Positions 23,392-64,000 of a DNA stretch of 64,000 nucleotides are shown here, piece by piece. Within the stretch, counting starts at the first letter, position 1; every line of letters begins with the position of its first letter. The DNA is from a phage. The position numbers and the translations under genes are program-made. The notes below the pieces were generated by a model. The model did no database searches and was not told the origin of the DNA. It saw only the letters and a program-made list of their open reading frames with translations. The DNA is taken from the sequence record PZ445430.1; one strand, 5' to 3'.

Positions 23392-23532
23392 TATAAGTGG
23401 AGTGCAATCTGTCACTGAAAAATATTGCTGCGAAACAAGCCTGAACATTGATTATCCTAGCAACGCAACGCGTGTTCTGCTATGTTAACAGTTCGCTGAT
23501 TCTTAGGCTGTTCTTATGTACAATATGAAAAC

Positions 23533-23558
23533 GCAAAATGCAAAATGCAAAATGCAAG
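23533..23558. repeat. (GCAAAAT)n heptanucleotide microsatellite
   Basis: gcaaaat repeated 3.5 times in the tail fibre 3' untranslated region. Confidence 0.85.
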
Positions 23559-23579
23559 AGGTTCGTTTTGCACCCTCTC

Positions 23580-23598
23580 AAAAAAAAAAAAAAAAAAA
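23580..23598. repeat. A19 homopolymer tract
   Basis: 19 consecutive A residues on + strand. Confidence 0.9.
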
Positions 23599-23644
23599 GA
23601 TTAATAAAATAAAGGAATTAGTAAAACAACTCCTTACTAAATAA

Positions 23645-23685
23645 GAGAAAACCCCAGTGGACAATCCACTGGGGTTTATTATTAT
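23645..23685. terminator. bidirectional intrinsic terminator between convergent late (+) and early (-) transcription
   Basis: CCCCAGTGG-ACAAT-CCACTGGGG hairpin flanked by A-run on one side and T-run on the other. Confidence 0.8.
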
Positions 23686-39531: not shown

Positions 39532-39840
39532 CTAGGCATTCTTGGCTTTGAGTTCTTCAGCTCGTTTCTGTACTTCATGCAATACCTCGGATTCACTGAG
39601 GATTTGCGTAAAAGCGTAAAATAGCTGTGATGTAGTTTCTAGGGTATAAGGAAAAGAGAAGCCGGATTTCGTTGGAAACCACTCTCCAGTAATATCTTGG
39701 AGCCAGTAACGAATTCCCATGTATAGATTCCCACGAAATTCAGATACGGTTAGTCTTACTTGTTCCCCCTCCTTCTCCCAAAGCATGATGGACTGGTCGT
39801 CAACGTGTCCTTCATAGTTTTGATTTACCTGATCGCTCAT
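39532..39840 (-). CDS. PC4-like ssDNA-binding protein
   Basis: 102 aa; RLTVSEFRGNLYMGIRYW...GEWFPTKSGFSFP resembles PC4/YdbC-type fold. Confidence 0.5.
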   Translation of the reverse strand: MSDQVNQNYEGHVDDQSIMLWEKEGEQVRLTVSEFRGNLYMGIRYWLQDITGEWFPTKSGFSFPYTLETTSQLFYAFTQILSESEVLHEVQKRAEELKAKNA

Positions 39841-42565: not shown

Positions 42566-45338
42566 TTCTAGCCCCCAATTCAGCAAGAGCTTCCTCATGC
42601 ATCTGACGTTCTTCATCTGTCATAAACTTAACTGGAATCGGCATACATTCGATCTTACAGTAAGTTCTGTACCAGTCCACAATCTTTTCCGTATCCAGAT
42701 CTTTACCAATACCCATCATGCCAAGATACATACGAGCATATTTTGGGTTAGCACTCTGACCTGTCTTAAGGAAGAAATCCTTCTTCTTATTCTTAAGAGC
42801 TTCAATAAAAGGTTTGATTGTTACGTTTGAACACTTCTTAATATCCTCCCAGAACATATCGTGCATCTTATGGAAGAATGCAGCTCTATCGTTTGGTTTA
42901 TCCTTGATATATTGTTCAACGTGTTCCACTGTTACATCTTTAATAGAATCCAGATGATAATAGCGAACCAGAAGTAACTTGGCTTCATATGCATCTGCAT
43001 GACGTGGTGCGCAGTATTCAGGAGTTGAGTGCAAAATAGCTTTGATTCGCTCTTCTGTATACTCTTTGCCTGCACCTTCGATAGTTCCCCAGCTTTCACT
43101 GAAAATATCAATAGTTGCACCTTGATCGAGAAGATAATACCGCAAAGTACTGGTATAGTTTCTAGATTCCAGCTCACGACGACGTGCGTACAGTTGTTGG
43201 GCTAACTCAATCCAACCTTCGTCAATATTATATTGCTCGGAACCCGCAGAAAATCCACTCGTAGATTTATCAATAAAATAATAAATGTTCTGAGCACCAC
43301 GGTCGCGCCTGATTGCTTGAAAACGCATGTTTGGCGCTTGGTTTGAGGTTCTAGTAATTACGAATACATTATCAAAATAGTTAAAGTCAACACCACTCGT
43401 TACAGATGGACTACATAATAAACAATCAATCTGTTGATCAATTAGCTCATTAGTTGTATAATCCAGAATACGTCGGATATCTACATCAGACGTAGAGTTT
43501 GAGTGAATTTCTTTAACTAACGCACCAGTATTACGACGTAACGCCATTCCCTTTTCATTCAGTTCATCTGGTCCACAGTCAGATACTAGGATTGACTTCT
43601 CACCCATCTCTAGAGATGTTTGAAGTGCAACCCAAATACTGGATTCATCAGGGAATTCATAAGCATGAGCTTTCGCCAGCATTTTACGGTGGTGATTATA
43701 AAATGCGACTGGTTTATCAAAATCAATCAAAGAACCATAGGCTTCAATCGTTTCTGCACTGATATCCCCATCAGATAAGATCACCGTTTTTGCAGTAATA
43801 AGAATATCACGAAGAACCTGAATACATTCACGACGGTTTTTAACAACCGGAGCGAATAACAGATCATTCATTACTGCGTCACATTCATCAATAAAGATCG
43901 TATCAATCTGACCCACAAAGCTCTTGAACTTATGTATAGAGTGAATAGTTGAAGACATACGATCAATAGCACCACGTTTGAAGTTCAGCATATCAACTGA
44001 CTTATCATACTGGCCAGCACCGAATTTCTTCGCATTAGAAGATACAAGTGCCCTAGTATTTGTGATTGCAATAAAGTTTCCTGGAAGAACACCTGCATCT
44101 AGCCACTTAGTTACTGCGGTAGTTTTACCCGTACCAAGACTTGCCTTAACAAATGTTAAATGTCCTTTTGGTGGTACAATGTTAATTTTCAGGTATGGAA
44201 CTTCTGGTGGAGAATCTGTGTCTAGACGTTTTAATGGTACACCTTTTAAGTTTGGTGGAATCTCACGTTTGGAGTTATTTACAAAGGCTTTGAGAGCCTG
44301 CTTACGACCGTTATTAAAGTAATCTTGAATATTACGACTATTATCTTTAGTCGCAATATACTCAGATAAAGCTGGTTTAATCTCACGTTCTAACCACGTA
44401 AAGTCAACACCATCTTCTAACGCTCTGTGATAAAGTTTTGGGATAATACGCAGGTACACTCCATCCTCAGCTTCTTCTAGTTCGCTGATGGTTTCTTCCA
44501 CTTTATCAGATGCAGCCTTCTTGCCTTTAATTTGGTCAAGTAAGGAGTAGAATTCTTCTTTAAACTCACCTCTAGTTGTTTCAAAGTCAACTAGGTTATT
44601 GGGTAGATTCACTTTCGAACCCTTAACATACACAAGACGTGGTTTATTCTCCGCTTTAAACGGATCGACTATACCATCATCAAATAAGGGGTCTGCAAAA
44701 TAGTGAAGCTGAACAGAAGAATAATAAGCTAAGTCAGCAATATCAAAACCATACTTTTGCTTACTACTGTCATTGATAGATGTAAATAAGAACTTTAACT
44801 GACCTTGCGTTACCTTGACATTAGATTCTAGCATTAAGTGCATTCGGATACCTGGTTTTAGGCCAGCCGAAGACGATGCATGAGCAATAAACCCTGCATC
44901 AAGAGGAAACATATCCTCACTAATACTATTCAACATCTTAATAATATGACGTGCCATGCCAACAAGATTAAACTTGTCATAGCCACCAGTATCTACAATA
45001 CCATCCACGTCCATAGCGATAATATGACTAGGATTGGATACGTTAAAGTTTCCTCTGGTACGACGCACATTATCTTTTGGAGCTAAACATTTACCACGAA
45101 TAGCTACAATATGCGGGTCTTTGGTAAGACGACGCATGATAGGTAACATTTCAGCAAGGTTTTGCGGGTCAAGTTCTTCAAGTACATCAAATTTGAAGGG
45201 CATGGAAGCTGGTTTACCTTCTGGATGCTCTTTAGAGAATCGCTTTGCAAAGGTGTAGTCTTCCACTTTGATCTCTTTCCAGATGCCAGTGGCTTTATCT
45301 CTGGAAAATCCTGCGTGACCTTGTAGGATTGAGAACAC
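42549..45338 (-). CDS. D2-like large P-loop NTPase / helicase, possibly with N-terminal primase-like domain
   Basis: Walker A ASLGTGKTT; possible primase-like acidic motif MDVDGI; start moved from track ATG 45461 to in-frame GTG about 45338 preceded by AGGAG. Confidence 0.55.
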   Translation of the reverse strand: MFSILQGHAGFSRDKATGIWKEIKVEDYTFAKRFSKEHPEGKPASMPFKFDVLEELDPQNLAEMLPIMRRLTKDPHIVAIRGKCLAPKDNVRRTRGNFNVSNPSHIIAMDVDGIVDTGGYDKFNLVGMARHIIKMLNSISEDMFPLDAGFIAHASSSAGLKPGIRMHLMLESNVKVTQGQLKFLFTSINDSSKQKYGFDIADLAYYSSVQLHYFADPLFDDGIVDPFKAENKPRLVYVKGSKVNLPNNLVDFETTRGEFKEEFYSLLDQIKGKKAASDKVEETISELEEAEDGVYLRIIPKLYHRALEDGVDFTWLEREIKPALSEYIATKDNSRNIQDYFNNGRKQALKAFVNNSKREIPPNLKGVPLKRLDTDSPPEVPYLKINIVPPKGHLTFVKASLGTGKTTAVTKWLDAGVLPGNFIAITNTRALVSSNAKKFGAGQYDKSVDMLNFKRGAIDRMSSTIHSIHKFKSFVGQIDTIFIDECDAVMNDLLFAPVVKNRRECIQVLRDILITAKTVILSDGDISAETIEAYGSLIDFDKPVAFYNHHRKMLAKAHAYEFPDESSIWVALQTSLEMGEKSILVSDCGPDELNEKGMALRRNTGALVKEIHSNSTSDVDIRRILDYTTNELIDQQIDCLLCSPSVTSGVDFNYFDNVFVITRTSNQAPNMRFQAIRRDRGAQNIYYFIDKSTSGFSAGSEQYNIDEGWIELAQQLYARRRELESRNYTSTLRYYLLDQGATIDIFSESWGTIEGAGKEYTEERIKAILHSTPEYCAPRHADAYEAKLLLVRYYHLDSIKDVTVEHVEQYIKDKPNDRAAFFHKMHDMFWEDIKKCSNVTIKPFIEALKNKKKDFFLKTGQSANPKYARMYLGMMGIGKDLDTEKIVDWYRTYCKIECMPIPVKFMTDEERQMHEEALAELGARNDSEE

Positions 45339-45829
45339 AACAATACTCCTATGTTGGTTATTCGGATATCTTTCTTTAGGACTATTCAAAAGAATAGAAC
45401 AACTATTACTACCATTTACACAAACATTAATCATCATCAAGCAGTATGAATAAGTTATCATACCTCAGTGCTGCGCTCTCTTAACTCTTATCCAGATCAG
45501 AATCTAGGTCATTGGCCGCTAAGCCGATTCTGATTGCCCTCACTATCCTATTGGTAGGTGGCTACTGGACGTGTCACCATTCGCTGCTCTTTTCGTTCGC
45601 ACCCCCATATAAAGCTCTGCCTATATAACGAGCTAAATATGCACGGTTTGGATTTACCTTTCCGAATTCAGGGTACGCAGATCACTTAATTGATAATTAA
45701 CTAACGCAGTATAAACACTAGTAATAGTTAAAACAACCCTTAATGGGGCAGCCTAACTGTTCCGTATTGCGGATTGTAAACAAGAAAAATTAGCAAAATC
45801 AATTTTTACTAATGTCTCTCAATTCAATA

Positions 45830-45870
45830 TAAATATTATATCAAGATTTTGAGCATCCTGCAAGTAAAAT
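45830..45870 (-). promoter_or_regulatory. promoter upstream of long leader of D2-like gene
   Basis: on - strand TTGCAG, 17-nt spacer, TATAAT. Confidence 0.5.
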
Positions 45871-45902
45871 TTTTCCGAAGGTGCTATCAGTGTCCTTGAG
45901 CA

Positions 45903-45931
45903 CAGAGAAAACCGAGTCATTTTGACTCGGT
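45903..45931 (-). terminator. intrinsic terminator after paralog gene
   Basis: CCGAGTC-AAAAT-GACTCGG hairpin followed by TTTTCTCT on - strand. Confidence 0.7.
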
Positions 45932-45954
45932 AATCAGGATTGAGCTAATGAAAA

Positions 45955-51091: not shown

Positions 51092-51184
51092 TATACCCTC
51101 CTTCTCTAACTAAGACTACTATTATAACTCATTCGAAGGCGGATGTCAACAATATTTTACTATAAAGTTCTGTAACATGATCTG

Positions 51185-51235
51185 AGTCAAAAAATTTTAT
51201 TTGCCAACCTCTACTAAAAATAGTATAATCACGCA
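51185..51235 (+). promoter_or_regulatory. T5-type early promoter (distal, upstream of phoH-like)
   Basis: A-rich UP region, TTGCCA, 17-nt spacer, TATAAT. Confidence 0.5.
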
Positions 51236-51324
51236 CCCGTGCACGCGATATAAAATGATTATCTAGTACCATACATCTCCCAATAAAAGCAAGCAAATTT
51301 TTTATTTAAATGCAATATCATAGG

Positions 51325-51385
51325 CTTATTTAAAATTGTAGTTGCTTTCTCCCGTATATATTGGTATAATATATTTGTAAGTTGA
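51325..51385 (+). promoter_or_regulatory. T5-type early promoter (proximal, upstream of phoH-like)
   Basis: AAAATT UP, TTGCTT, 17-nt spacer, TATAAT. Confidence 0.6.
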
Positions 51386-51443
51386 TAAACAAGATCTTTT
51401 TGTTGATCCTCTGTTAGCGAAGTACACTATAGGAGTGTTATTT

Positions 51444-60834: not shown

Positions 60835-61536
60835 ATGAAATTCAAGCCCTTTGGTATGCTGGACATTGAATCTCTAGGTACTCCAGGAAATTGCGGTACT
60901 ACTCATATTGCAATGCCTTCTTTCGCTTTTGTAGCGATGCACGGAATTGATAAAGATCCTGATCTGGTATTCGTTACTCTAGACGTTCAAGATCAGCTTA
61001 ATGCGGGTGCTAAGGTAACTGCCTCTACTATTGCATTCTGGATGGATCAAGCTAAAAACAGTCCATCTGCGCTCCATATTATGGAGGCTCTAAATGGTCG
61101 TAATCCTAAGCTGATTGCCTTCCGTGATGGTAAGCATCACTGCACTAATGACGTAGGCTCTAATTATGCTGCCTTCTCTATGGCTCAGAACATTATGGAA
61201 TTGTCTCTAGGAGATAATGCTCTGTATTACGGCAATGGCCCAGAGTTTGATATGACAATCTACTCTGCAAATACGTTCCATGCCGGAACCCATGAAGAAA
61301 TAGTTCCGTGGAAATTCTGGAACTTAGGTAACGTTCGATCTTTCCGTAATCAGTGGATGCAAGCTGGTTATAGCTATAAAGATCTAGAAGCCGAAGGTGC
61401 TAGCTGGGCAAAAGCTAAAATGGAAAAGATGGACACCATTCGTTATGGAATCTATCCTGTGAAGCATGATCCAGCATTCGATGCTTTAGTTGAAAGTTAT
61501 TGTGTAGCCGTCATGATCGAAAAAATCAAAATTTGA
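60835..61536 (+). CDS. DEDDh-type 3'-5' exonuclease (putative)
   Basis: 233 aa; Exo I-like MLDIESLGT, Exo II-like GPEFDMTIY, Exo III-like HDPAFDALVESY. Confidence 0.55.
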   Translation: MKFKPFGMLDIESLGTPGNCGTTHIAMPSFAFVAMHGIDKDPDLVFVTLDVQDQLNAGAKVTASTIAFWMDQAKNSPSALHIMEALNGRNPKLIAFRDGKHHCTNDVGSNYAAFSMAQNIMELSLGDNALYYGNGPEFDMTIYSANTFHAGTHEEIVPWKFWNLGNVRSFRNQWMQAGYSYKDLEAEGASWAKAKMEKMDTIRYGIYPVKHDPAFDALVESYCVAVMIEKIKI

Positions 61537-61575
61537 TTTGCTTTCAGCTCCAAAATTCTGTATAATATATTCATA
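61520..61575 (+). promoter_or_regulatory. T5-type early promoter
   Basis: TTGCTT, 17-nt spacer, TATAAT, conserved CATAAATTTGAGAG box. Confidence 0.65.
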
Positions 61576-61606
61576 AATTTGAGAGAACAACAAAAGGAAA
61601 ATAATT

Positions 61607-61789
61607 ATGCCAGTATCTAAAAACGTCCGTAAAAATGGTAAAGTAGCAAAACGTAACCTGGGTCTGCGTCGTATGGCTGAGTGTCAGTCCGGCATCCAGA
61701 AAATCTTTAATGTACTGAATCGCGCCAACCCGAATATTGATAACAGTTCTGATACTGTTCTGCGCACTCTGCTGGCAATCGGTCTGTAA
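61607..61789 (+). CDS. small basic protein
   Basis: 60 aa, Lys/Arg-rich N-terminus. Confidence 0.5.
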   Translation: MPVSKNVRKNGKVAKRNLGLRRMAECQSGIQKIFNVLNRANPNIDNSSDTVLRTLLAIGL

Positions 61790-61843
61790 TAGGCCGTTTT
61801 TAAAACAAATTCAAATCTCAAACTTCATATAAGGAAGCAAATA

Positions 61844-62482
61844 ATGACTACTCGTATCTCTAAAACTCGTGCTCTGGCAACTATCAAGTCTCTGGAAGCT
61901 AAAATCCGTAAAGCTACTGAACAACAGCTTTTGATCGCTGTTGGTGAAGGTAAGGACAAGAACCAAGTTGTCGTTGGCGCTGCAATCGAAGTAGATGCTC
62001 TGTCTACTCGTATTAAGACTGATTTCCAGTCTCTGCTGGATATGATGTCCCAGCGTGATCAGCTGAAAGCTGCGCTGATCAAGAGCAATGCTGAAACTGT
62101 TGTAGAGATCGGTTCTCGCTCTATGACTGTTGCGGAAGCAATCGAAGCTAAGCGTTCTATGGAACTCAAAGCTCAGTTGCTGGCTAACATGCGTAAGCAG
62201 TTCCATGCTGCTACTGTTAAGTTTAACACTCAGAAGGCTCAGTTTGACGCCAAGTATGAGCGTCTGCAGGATACCATGGCTACCCGCGACAAGAAGACTT
62301 CCGAGGATGAAGTTAAGATGCAGCTTAACCTGCTGGAACTCAAGAACACTCCGTTCCTGATCGATCCGCTGGAGCTAGAAAAGCTGATCAAGCAACACGA
62401 CGAAGAATACCAGGACTTTGCAACTAACGTTGACTTTGTTCTGTCTGAGTCCAACGCCTCTACTTTCATCGAAGTAGAGTAA
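61844..62482 (+). CDS. hypothetical protein
   Basis: 212 aa, helical; strongly biased codon usage; AAGGAAG RBS. Confidence 0.6.
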   Translation: MTTRISKTRALATIKSLEAKIRKATEQQLLIAVGEGKDKNQVVVGAAIEVDALSTRIKTDFQSLLDMMSQRDQLKAALIKSNAETVVEIGSRSMTVAEAIEAKRSMELKAQLLANMRKQFHAATVKFNTQKAQFDAKYERLQDTMATRDKKTSEDEVKMQLNLLELKNTPFLIDPLELEKLIKQHDEEYQDFATNVDFVLSESNASTFIEVE

Positions 62483-62844
62483 TAATTTAAAAGACTAGTA
62501 AATCGGTAGACGAAAGCCCAAGCATCTTACCTCGCAGCAGCGGTTGAAATACGAGGTTAAATAAGACCGCTGACCATACTATAAAGTATAATCTATTGGA
62601 GATTATGTTTATTACACCAGCCTCTTAAGCTGAACTGTAAAAACGGTCGTTGGTAGTACCAACACAACTTCAAAGATCAACGCTCAAGTATGAAAGCTGA
62701 AAAGTTAAAAGAACTCAAACTTCTAACCTTCTAAAGCTAAAAGATGCAAAGTATTCGTTGATGATTCAAACCCTAGATCAAAGGTACATGGCTCATAAGA
62801 TATGGCCTGTGGCGCCTCTAGGCTGTTTATCGGTTCACTAGTCT

Positions 62845-62900
62845 CTCAATTTAAAAATGTATTTGCTAATTAGTTTAGTTTTCTATATAATATATTTTTA
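62845..62900 (+). promoter_or_regulatory. T5-type early promoter
   Basis: TTGCTA, 17-nt spacer, TATAAT, conserved AAATTGATGAG box. Confidence 0.65.
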
Positions 62901-62921
62901 AATTGATGAGACGAGGCTATT

Positions 62922-63239
62922 ATGATTTTTCATATTCTGATTGATGATGTTCGTGACCTGCATGGGATGGATATTATCATTCGAACCCCCGAAGCCGCTA
63001 TTGAGTTTCTGAATACAACCGATACCACCGGACATTTCGTTTATATGGATAATGATCTGGCTGTAGATGGTATGGAAGGTTATCAAATTCTTCGTTTACT
63101 CCTAGAATTTGGACAGAGACCCAAGAAAGTGGTACTAGTAACCTCGAACCCTGTAGCTAAGCAGAACATGCGTAATGATTTGCTTGACGAAGGGTATCAA
63201 GAAAGCCCTAATCGTATTGAGTACGATTGGCCGGAGTAA
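62922..63239 (+). CDS. small flavodoxin-fold protein, possibly receiver (REC)-like
   Basis: 105 aa; ILIDDV, YMDNDLAVDGMEGYQIL, VVLVTSNP resemble the acidic pocket, phospho-acceptor Asp and Thr/Ser of receiver domains; assignment tentative. Confidence 0.35.
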   Translation: MIFHILIDDVRDLHGMDIIIRTPEAAIEFLNTTDTTGHFVYMDNDLAVDGMEGYQILRLLLEFGQRPKKVVLVTSNPVAKQNMRNDLLDEGYQESPNRIEYDWPE

Positions 63240-63244
63240 ATAAA

Positions 63245-63694
63245 ATGAAGGCAGCTTTGCTTCTAATAGCTGCCCTAACCTATAGCTTCAATAGTCATGC
63301 TACCTACGACTCAAAGCAGATTGATTGCATTGCAAAAAATATCTACTTCGAAGCACGAGGTGAGGGCACAAAGGGAATGATTGCAGTTGCACAGGTTACT
63401 AAAAACCGTGTAAACTCCGGTAAATTCCCTGATTCTTACTGTAAAGTAGTATATCAGTCTAACCAATTCAGCTGGACAGCTAAAAAACCTAGGGTTGATA
63501 AAACAGATGAGACTTGGCAAGTTGCTAAGAACTTAGCTAGAGTGATATACTACGTTGATTTACCACAAGATCCAACACAGGGGGCGTTATACTTCCATAG
63601 TGGTAAAGATAAACCGTACTGGACAAAGAAGTTTAAGAAAACAACGAAGATTCAAGGCCATACGTTCTACAAGCCTGTGGTTAAGAAAACTTAA
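63245..63694 (+). CDS. secreted cell-wall hydrolase, SleB/CwlJ (Hydrolase_2) family
   Basis: N-terminal signal peptide (MKAALLLIAALTYSFNSHA); IAKNIYFEARGE...VTKNRV...FPDSYCKVVYQSNQFSW matches SleB-like core; start at ATG 63245 after GGAG. Confidence 0.65.
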   Translation: MKAALLLIAALTYSFNSHATYDSKQIDCIAKNIYFEARGEGTKGMIAVAQVTKNRVNSGKFPDSYCKVVYQSNQFSWTAKKPRVDKTDETWQVAKNLARVIYYVDLPQDPTQGALYFHSGKDKPYWTKKFKKTTKIQGHTFYKPVVKKT

Positions 63695-63735
63695 AAATTC
63701 GATTGCTTAAAGACTTAAATTTCTGTATAATACTT
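63690..63735 (+). promoter_or_regulatory. T5-type early promoter
   Basis: TTGCTT, 17-nt spacer, TATAAT. Confidence 0.65.
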
Positions 63736-63762
63736 TCATAAATTAATGAGAGGAAGCGAAAT

Positions 63763-63933
63763 ATGAAATCAGTTGTAATTATTGGTGTTAATACCCGTGG
63801 TATCCGTACTACGAAAACAGTTAAAACTACTAACGTTGCTGAAATTACTACAAACCCTAAGAAGTTTGATTTCGCCAAAGTCTCGGCAGTTATGACAGAA
63901 CAATCTTTTAACCAAGTACTGGGAATTAAATAA
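63763..63933 (+). CDS. hypothetical small protein (56 aa)
   Basis: ORF below track cutoff (MKSVVIIGVNTRGIRTTK...), GAGAGGAAG RBS and promoter upstream. Confidence 0.45.
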   Translation: MKSVVIIGVNTRGIRTTKTVKTTNVAEITTNPKKFDFAKVSAVMTEQSFNQVLGIK

Positions 63934-64000
63934 TGGAAGAAAATATTCTAAATGTTTTGCGTAGGGCTTTGCAGGAATCTAAGATTGATGGCTCTGATAA
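63933..64000 (+). CDS. hypothetical protein, 5' end only (runs off window)
   Basis: ATG overlapping preceding stop (TAATG); open to window end. Confidence 0.3.
   Translation, partial: MEENILNVLRRALQESKIDGSD

Follow-up and report, generated by a model that had tools for sequence, protein, structure and literature searches.

The 64,000-nucleotide stretch of phage DNA analyzed here (record PZ445430.1; hereafter the window) contains a gap without open reading frames (ORFs) at positions 62483–62921, directly after a plus-strand gene (61844–62482) for a 212-amino-acid (aa) protein of family phrog_1491, the homologue of T5 ORF080/T5.085. This gap almost certainly encodes a plus-strand structured RNA (~320–350 nucleotides (nt) in length) that is genetically coupled to phrog_1491. 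In the window, the RNA spans ~353 nt (62492–62844) and is bounded by a closing helix, designated P1, as delineated by nhmmer searches, a consensus fold, and covariation. Its fold, which comprises P1, a pseudoknot, and a 3′ domain, is maintained by compensatory changes, and at least five phage lineages, as well as chromosomes mostly from Bacillota, retain the order of gene then RNA. The initial annotation of the window had proposed that the gap harbors a noncoding RNA, a replication origin, or a specific nick site. For the first of these proposals, there is strong support from covariation, from G-U pairs that are specific to one strand, from purifying selection, and from the conservation of the element in unrelated phages and bacteria.

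Fold and sequence conservation of the RNA

The closing helix P1 is formed by a 5′ strand, AGACUAGUAAAUCGGUAGAC (62492–62511), that ends in a conserved CG followed by AAA, and a 3′ strand, GUUUAUCGGUUCACUAGUCU (62825–62844). Nineteen of its 20 positions are paired, three as G-U, and the sole mismatch (A-C) is an A-U pair in all other T5-like phages. In T5-type phages, a 1-nt deletion in P1 is offset by the change C62843U, which restores pairing in a shifted register; overall, double changes are found in 15 of 16 P1 pairs. The unrelated Salmonella phage 41 (92 kb) carries a core that is 71% identical to the element of the window and a closing helix of different sequence in which every position is paired (19–20 base pairs by two counts). 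For wider comparison, loci were gathered through alignment of the protein (53 non-T5 viral loci and 80 from bacterial genomes). The architecture of P1 and the 3′ domain, built from unrelated P1 sequences, was recovered in 32 of 52 viral loci (1–5 in shuffles) and in 79 of 79 genomic loci, the latter with looser search settings and without a shuffle control.

An H-type pseudoknot (62529–62572, plus strand) is generated by strands interleaved in the order S1, S2, S1′, S2′. ACCUCG (62529–62534) pairs with CGAGGU (62552–62557) to form S1, CAGCGGUU (62538–62545) pairs with GACCGCUG (62565–62572) to form S2, and UAAAUAA (62558–62564) serves as the linker. The initial annotation had read CAGCGGT and ACCGCTG (62538–62544 and 62566–62572) as a hairpin; both segments are present, but they constitute stem 2 of the conserved pseudoknot rather than a plain hairpin. 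Among 51 unique diverse sequences, a pseudoknot with the UAAA linker was recovered in 30, compared with 2–8 in shuffles, and the sequences of its helices differ widely. The 3′ domain (62771–62824, plus strand) is flanked by the conserved motifs AAAUC/AAACC and GCUG. It contains helices H3 (CCUAG(A), 62772–62777, paired with (U)CUAGG, 62817–62822), H4 (AGGU, 62782–62785, paired with GCCU, 62814–62817), and H5 (GGCU, 62790–62793, paired with GGCC, 62804–62807), the last of which encloses the loop CAUAAGAUAU.

Analysis of 14 diverse full-length copies with RNAalifold revealed a consensus fold of 36 pairs, 30 of which show double changes. The corresponding numbers were 15.6 in shuffles and 6–11 with slid partners, and none of 500 shuffles reached the observed value. 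Paired cells accounted for 94.2% of the total in the alignment, as opposed to 73% in shuffles and 37–49% with slid partners. An independent set of 26 bacterial copies displayed double changes in 15 of 17 pairs, and the outer helix of the 3′ domain covaried again. The RNA fold of the plus strand has a z-score of −4.75 relative to shuffled controls. Several U-G/G-U pairs are invariant or frequent, including those at alignment columns 35/444 and 403/414; because on the minus strand these pairs would become A-C mismatches, they fix the plus strand as the one that folds. We also considered a small RNA on the minus strand, suggested by a terminator-like hairpin at 62664–62648 and a minus-strand “putative promoter” in record AY692264. 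This candidate was rejected in view of the G-U pattern; moreover, the hairpin lies in a neutrally evolving patch and is lost in T5, and the promoter was annotated to serve a coding sequence (CDS) placed on the wrong strand.

The gap is 92–100% identical across ~440 phage records, T5 among them. Nucleotide diversity (π), calculated from 26 aligned unique T5-like sequences, is 0.004 at 62495–62616 and 0.017 at 62664–62840, whereas third codon positions in the two flanking genes have values of 0.13–0.15; the conserved blocks thus vary 8–35 times less than the synonymous sites of their neighbors. The only fast-evolving patch, 62617–62663, evolves neutrally (π = 0.13). Compensatory pairs in excess of all controls, together with strong selection that carries no coding signal, are what is expected of a structured noncoding RNA.

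Immediately 5′ of the 3′ domain lies an array of 7-nt repeats (62668–62770, plus strand) that follow the register G-y-U-n-A-A-w; most of the array is predicted to be unpaired. Six units, at 62668–62709, keep exact phase (CTTCAAA, GATCAAC, GCTCAAG, TATGAAA, GCTGAAA, and AGTTAAA), and more extend to ~62770. Among distant members, the array is the part of the RNA that is best conserved in sequence. AAAG motifs lie a multiple of 7 nt apart in 61% of the 165 pairs of the viral set, compared with 14% in shuffles, and in 69% of 317 pairs from an independent genomic set, compared with 12.5% in upstream controls. An alignment-free count identified at least four in-phase units 3′ of the gene in 42 of 50 viral and 72 of 77 genomic loci (114/127), whereas upstream controls contained them in 4 of 50 and 2 of 75 cases, respectively (6/125). 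As expected for a binding platform or a sponge, the array comprises 6–12 in-phase heptamers that are unpaired in the consensus fold.

The partner protein and distribution of the module

The 212-aa protein matches phrog_1491 with an E-value of 2e-81, and the ORF that precedes the copy in Salmonella phage 41 belongs to phrog_1491 as well. Searches of the protein against Pfam, NCBIfam, PADLOC, and the sequences in PDB yielded no meaningful match; one bacterial homologue gave two weak PADLOC matches (E = 0.002–0.008) to unrelated families. The AlphaFold2 (AF2) model of the protein is helical (predicted local distance difference test score, pLDDT, of 87.8), and its structural matches are confined to generic coiled coils or uncharacterized proteins. 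The family comprises 3,326 clusters at 50% identity, nearly all of which contain proteins of 205–215 aa. Two existing annotations of the gene are corrected by this analysis. The RefSeq/PHROG label “tail fiber protein” is unsupported, and record AY692264 wrongly places a 798-bp CDS, T5p083 (1844–2641 of our locus L004), together with the “putative promoter” mentioned above, on the opposite strand.

Gene and RNA are inherited together, the RNA coming after the gene in each lineage examined. In searches with nhmmer, the element was found directly 3′ of the gene on the plus strand in 42 of 54 viral and 57 of 80 genomic loci; within the window it is single-copy (E = 5e-68 at 62484–62845). Conversely, an RNA-motif scan of the viral collection produced ten matches, all ten in contigs that carry the protein. 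The phrog_1491 protein is the only universally conserved neighbor (55/55 loci), and no further neighboring gene family is shared among these 55 loci beyond the level of subclades. Diverged copies sit immediately 3′ of phrog_1491 homologues in rV5-like, Klebsiella, and Pectobacterium phages as well as in uncultured ones, frequently within arrays of transfer RNA (tRNA) genes, and the element is present in ~80 bacterial genomes, mostly of Bacillota. The occurrence of this protein-RNA module across diverse phages and cultivable Bacillota, with >3,000 protein clusters, marks it as a widespread, ancient, and mobile two-component unit.

In Lysinibacillus and Solibacillus (loci L139–L170 and others), the module looks like a stand-alone chromosomal locus, which suggests that it is not restricted to phages. 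Several Lysinibacillus species share a recurring terminator sequence, and tRNAs were not found in the loci scanned. The neighbors of one such module (L143, 1456–2401) resemble, as judged by sequence, a DinB-like protein and a fragment of an IS3-type transposase. In Paenibacillus xylaniclasticus, the element is followed after ~85 nt by a skipping-rope RNA (RF02924; L126, 2519–2647) that scores 54 bits and thereby exceeds the gathering score, which places two orphan structured RNAs side by side. A subclade of rV5-like and Klebsiella phages carries an ORF of ~203 aa directly upstream of the phrog_1491 gene (L034, 956–1573, and nine other loci). Its predicted product is coiled-coil-like with an N-terminus that loosely resembles phrog_1491, and it may be a distant paralogue.

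Boundaries, transcription context, and neighboring features

The phage is EPS7/T5-like; between 61800 and 63300, its sequence shows 100% identity to that of the T5 relative SuperGirl, an Escherichia phage (MZ501105; Demerecviridae, Epseptimavirus). The gap that contains the RNA is flanked by the 212-aa ORF on its 5′ side and by a plus-strand ORF of 105 aa (62922–63239) on its 3′ side. Its description as ORF-free was borne out, as no ORF of at least 30 aa lies wholly inside it on either strand; a 62-aa antisense shadow ORF (62898–63086) overlaps its end by 24 nt. With a cutoff of 60 aa, the ORF-free segment 62483–62897 (415 bp) ranks second in the 64-kb window. The longest, 45462–45954 (493 bp), lies between two minus-strand genes, has a modest fold z-score of −2.3, and matches no Rfam family; further stretches without an ORF of at least 60 aa are found at 51092–51434 and 23392–23681. 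The gap corresponds to 42984–43425 of T5 record AY587007. Among the annotated relatives inspected, it is blank except for promoters and one 23-aa CDS (BSP22A), and the structured element is unannotated in every T5-family record inspected.

The spacing between the stop codon and P1 has a median of 8 nt in bacterial loci, where an intrinsic plus-strand terminator occurs within 80 nt after the RNA in 24 of 53 cases, compared with 0 of 53 control windows. In phages, tRNAs lie within 2 kb of the module in ~30 of 50 loci, and in rV5-like and Klebsiella phages a tRNA-Thr gene begins a few nt past P1. In T5-like phages, the RNA is directly followed by promoter T5P23, which together with the leader and ribosome-binding site of the next gene occupies 62845–62921 (plus strand), outside the RNA. 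The initial annotation correctly placed a T5-type promoter at the end of the gap. The site, TTGCTA-17-TATAAT (62863–62891), consists of a −35 element at 62863–62868 and a −10 element at 62886–62891. T5-type early promoters are defined by a TTGCTT-like −35 element, a spacer of 17–18 nt, a TATAAT −10 element, an A/T-rich upstream sequence, and a position before an early gene; the site in the window has these features and matches the −35/−10 consensus at 10 of 12 positions. Record AY587007 lists it as early promoter T5P23, and AKFV33 annotates it under “T5 promoter consensus.” The π of this promoter/leader segment (0.06) is similar to that of the coding flanks, and the same promoter architecture recurs at 63700–63760.

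Two phages, bobsandoy (L005, 1565–2101) and bastian, carry a homing-endonuclease cassette exactly at the 3′ boundary of the RNA, after ...ACUAGU (equivalent to 62841/62842 in the window). The cassette falls between the RNA and T5P23 and leaves the RNA and the 3′ strand of P1 intact. At the other end of the module, a terminator-like hairpin with a T-run (61780–61796) lies between a 60-aa ORF and the 212-aa gene. No promoter-like site was seen between this hairpin and the gene, so expression of gene and RNA may depend on read-through. The gene downstream of the gap (62922–63239) encodes a cREC_REC domain protein (PF20274, cyclic-phosphate processing receiver domain, E = 1e-15). The cREC_REC family is tied to RNA-repair contexts; outside T5-like phages, the gene is not conserved beside the module. 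In T5, the neighboring island has been described as dispensable, tRNA-rich, and “anti-defence” (bioRxiv 10.1101/2023.03.15.532788). The T5-family anti-retron gene Rad was rejected as the partner gene, as it encodes 189 aa with a Toprim domain and resides inside this dispensable island (bioRxiv 10.1101/2023.03.15.532788).

Between the pseudoknot and the heptamer array lies a variable hairpin region (62573–62667, plus strand) whose length and sequence differ between lineages. It holds a TATAAT-like box, a GGAG with a mini-ORF, and the palindrome TTGGTAGTACCAA. Several motifs singled out by the initial annotation fall here and are present as described, although their proposed meaning did not hold. 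The −10-like sequence TATAAAGTATAAT (62579–62591), the GGAG (62598–62601), and the 7-codon mini-ORF (62606–62629) had been noted as a series. We rejected an internal promoter and mini-ORF, as these motifs sit inside variable hairpins and are not conserved beyond T5-like phages; the ATG of the mini-ORF is missing from My1-like and rV5-like copies. The near-palindrome TTGGTA-G-TACCAA (62651–62663), likewise restricted to T5-like phages, is located inside the fast-evolving patch and loses its pairing in T5. In two loci, complete tRNA genes are nested in the variable region: Thr-UGU in L074 (2729–2805) and Gln-UUG in L192 (2198–2274). If such a nested tRNA were excised, the RNA would be left as two halves joined by P1.

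Proposed function and relation to known systems

The explanation that we favor, and regard as probable, is that the ~350-nt structured noncoding RNA and the 212-aa protein form a two-part module in which the RNA is produced as a 3′ extension of the gene’s transcript and assembles with its partner into a ribonucleoprotein (RNP). Judging from the arrangement of sequence features, the RNA would be co-transcribed with the gene as an extension of the messenger RNA (mRNA), and an intrinsic terminator (in bacteria) or processing of the abutting tRNA (in many phages) would define its 3′ end. The mature RNA may then bind the partner protein, with the heptamer array (6–12 units) acting as an iterated binding platform that the closing helix, pseudoknot, and 3′ domain would hold in a defined frame. 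This is the least certain step of the model, and we propose it tentatively, with somewhat less than even confidence. The tRNA-array setting and the nearby anti-defense island of T5 suggest that the module may act in RNA/tRNA metabolism or counter-defense early in infection and hint at a role in the conflict between phage and host over RNA. The balance tips slightly toward a broader proposal, namely that an undescribed class of large RNA and a helical partner of 210 aa that falls outside Pfam and NCBIfam constitute a new RNP, common to virulent phages of Proteobacteria and Bacillota and to Bacillota chromosomes, whose heptamers engage many copies of a ligand. This ligand could be a host RNase, the anticodon loops of tRNAs, or the partner protein itself, and the outcome would be a new mechanism in phage RNA/tRNA biology or counter-defense.

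Several points weigh against the RNP model. Coinheritance of gene and RNA would also fit a cis-regulatory 3′ untranslated region (UTR), and the model of the partner protein displays no recognizable RNA-binding fold. In T5-like phages, neither a terminator nor a tRNA follows the RNA, which leaves its 3′ end undefined there. Finally, the interior of the RNA (the variable region and part of the array) cannot be aligned reliably among distant members, and the fold model is therefore incomplete in this region.

A 3′ UTR that acts only in cis, either by stabilizing the mRNA against 3′ exonucleases or by providing an autoregulatory site, with no function in trans, is a much less probable alternative. 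Its strength lies in the strict order of gene then RNA and in the start of the RNA ~8 nt past the stop codon, which is too close to accommodate a separate promoter; with this spacing, a terminating ribosome would reach into P1. However, a length of ~320–350 nt, a pseudoknot, a repeat array, and a π of 0.004 far exceed what stabilizers or autoregulatory operators usually need, and the RNA is more constrained than the synonymous sites of its own partner gene. Moreover, the tRNA that abuts the RNA in many phages and the tRNA nested within it in two loci imply endonucleolytic processing into separate RNA species. It is unlikely that the RNA functions as a decoy or sponge in which the array titrates a host factor or defense ribonuclease (such as an A-rich-specific endoribonuclease, an anticodon nuclease, Hfq, or S1) and the protein helps or protects it. 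Iterated short single-stranded motifs are a hallmark of sponge RNAs of the CsrB type, and the repeat logo can be read as AAAG-type units complementary to the anticodon loops of UUN tRNAs. Clostridial units, however, terminate with U instead of A-G; this change breaks the complementarity to the anticodon loops of tRNA Lys/Glu/Gln and weakens this idea. Phage PhiTE escapes ToxIN through a repeat RNA mimic (PMC3475682), and the module described here borders the tRNA-rich anti-defense island of T5 (bioRxiv 10.1101/2023.03.15.532788). On the other hand, meaningful PADLOC matches were not found, and a purely anti-defense role fits poorly with a module that, in many species of Lysinibacillus and Solibacillus, is a stable chromosomal locus with no obvious prophage surroundings.

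Explanations that dispense with an RNA fare far worse. The gap does contain a long inverted repeat, several palindromes, and one GCGC (62813–62816), and T5 nicks are reported at GCGC-type sequences. Nevertheless, a DNA-level element, whether replication origin, T5 nick site, or other protein-binding region, is very improbable. The specific nick site proposed by the initial annotation is unsupported, since the annotated major nick 3 (32.6%) of AY587007 maps to 39660–39667, ~3.3 kb from the gap, and many of the phages and bacterial chromosomes that contain the element are not known to carry nicks. The proposed replication origin lacks support, as no GC-skew inflection was found. Compensatory changes that preserve pairing over sequence, together with the tolerance of G-U on one strand only, indicate conservation of the RNA type rather than the DNA type, and copies occur in unrelated phages as well as in chromosomes, where they lie between stop codon and terminator. 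We assign an equally slight probability to an overlooked coding region, whether for small proteins or as a decayed gene, and to a remnant left by a mobile element or by the target of a homing endonuclease. The 23-aa CDS of BSP22A, the mini-ORF preceded by GGAG, and the endonuclease at the edge of the element in two phages might be taken as signs of such an origin; however, no ORF of at least 30 aa is contained in the gap, the small ORFs are not conserved beyond close relatives, and variation tracks helices rather than codons. The endonuclease inserted beyond the boundary of the RNA, and the element is single-copy in the window.

T5 is a classic model phage, yet none of the T5-family records inspected annotates the element, even though among T5-like phages it is more conserved than the genes that adjoin it. 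The module is accessible to genetics in T5, the BASEL phages, and Lysinibacillus, and its function therefore lends itself to direct testing. A covariance search against Rfam 15, which the initial annotation had put forward as a check, matched the element to no family: nothing relevant was found at E ≤ 10 in 61500–64000, no gathering-level match in the whole window, and, in 16 diverse loci scanned at E ≤ 1, no hit that fell on the element. ARAGORN detected no tRNA or transfer-messenger RNA (tmRNA) in the window. A description of this RNA was not found in the searchable literature. The portion of a 2023 survey of viral structured RNAs available to us lists candidates of only 29–151 nt, and candidates of this size could include at most fragments of the RNA.

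The element shares features with several known systems. Like the tmRNA that works with SmpB, it measures ~350 nt, is sealed by a closing helix of its 5′ and 3′ ends, and has an A-rich single-stranded stretch after a pseudoknot; the partner gene of tmRNA likewise lies immediately upstream in many genomes. Unlike tmRNA, it has no tRNA-like acceptor or T-arm and no CCA end, and its partner is helical rather than a barrel like SmpB; tmRNA families gave no match at E ≤ 10 in the window or at E ≤ 1 in the other loci. Ro60 (Rsr) and its Y RNA (including bacterial and phage YrlA) offer another parallel, in which a long stem formed by the 5′ and 3′ ends closes around a module, the RNA is encoded beside its protein partner, and the pair is found in phages. 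The partner described here, however, is a helical protein of 212 aa without a Pfam match rather than a TROVE/HEAT ring of ~530 aa, and the RNA is ~3 times longer; no Y-RNA family was detected at E ≤ 10 in the window or at E ≤ 1 in 16 other loci. CsrB/RsmZ (bound by CsrA) and the sites of TRAP and HutP resemble the array in presenting many close copies of a short motif in a single-stranded context, and HutP sites also have a 7-nt period. The motif itself differs, and the array is enclosed here in a large, conserved tertiary scaffold.

In ToxIN and the pseudo-ToxI of PhiTE, a protein is likewise genetically coupled to a repetitive noncoding RNA, and phages can carry such RNAs (PMC3475682). ToxI consists of pseudoknot units of ~36 nt located upstream of the toxin gene, whereas 7-nt units within one large fold lie downstream of the gene here. 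Type III toxin-antitoxin systems are recognized by tandem repeats of ~34–45 nt upstream of a ToxN-family endoribonuclease, an arrangement not seen at this locus. The helical model of the partner also differs from what we take to be the ToxN fold. We rejected identity with the pseudo-ToxI of PhiTE, which has a different 36-nt repeat, and regard the resemblance as analogy only.

ROOL and GOLLD are also large, intricate, phage-associated RNAs that often lie beside tRNA genes and have no assigned function (PMC12286853, PMC5737381). They are longer (~580 and ~800 nt, compared with ~320–350 nt), and their Rfam models match neither the window nor the 16 copies. To our knowledge, ROOL and GOLLD have neither an obligatory adjacent partner gene nor a heptamer array, both of which are present here. 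OLE RNA and its Oap proteins resemble the module in that a large, ornate RNA of Bacillota has dedicated protein partners encoded alongside (PMC3413148). The 16 diverse loci gave no match to the Rfam model of OLE, and size, partners, and phage distribution differ. OLE, ROOL, and GOLLD each opened new questions; in the RNA described here, the protein partner is evident and the repeats form a regular array.
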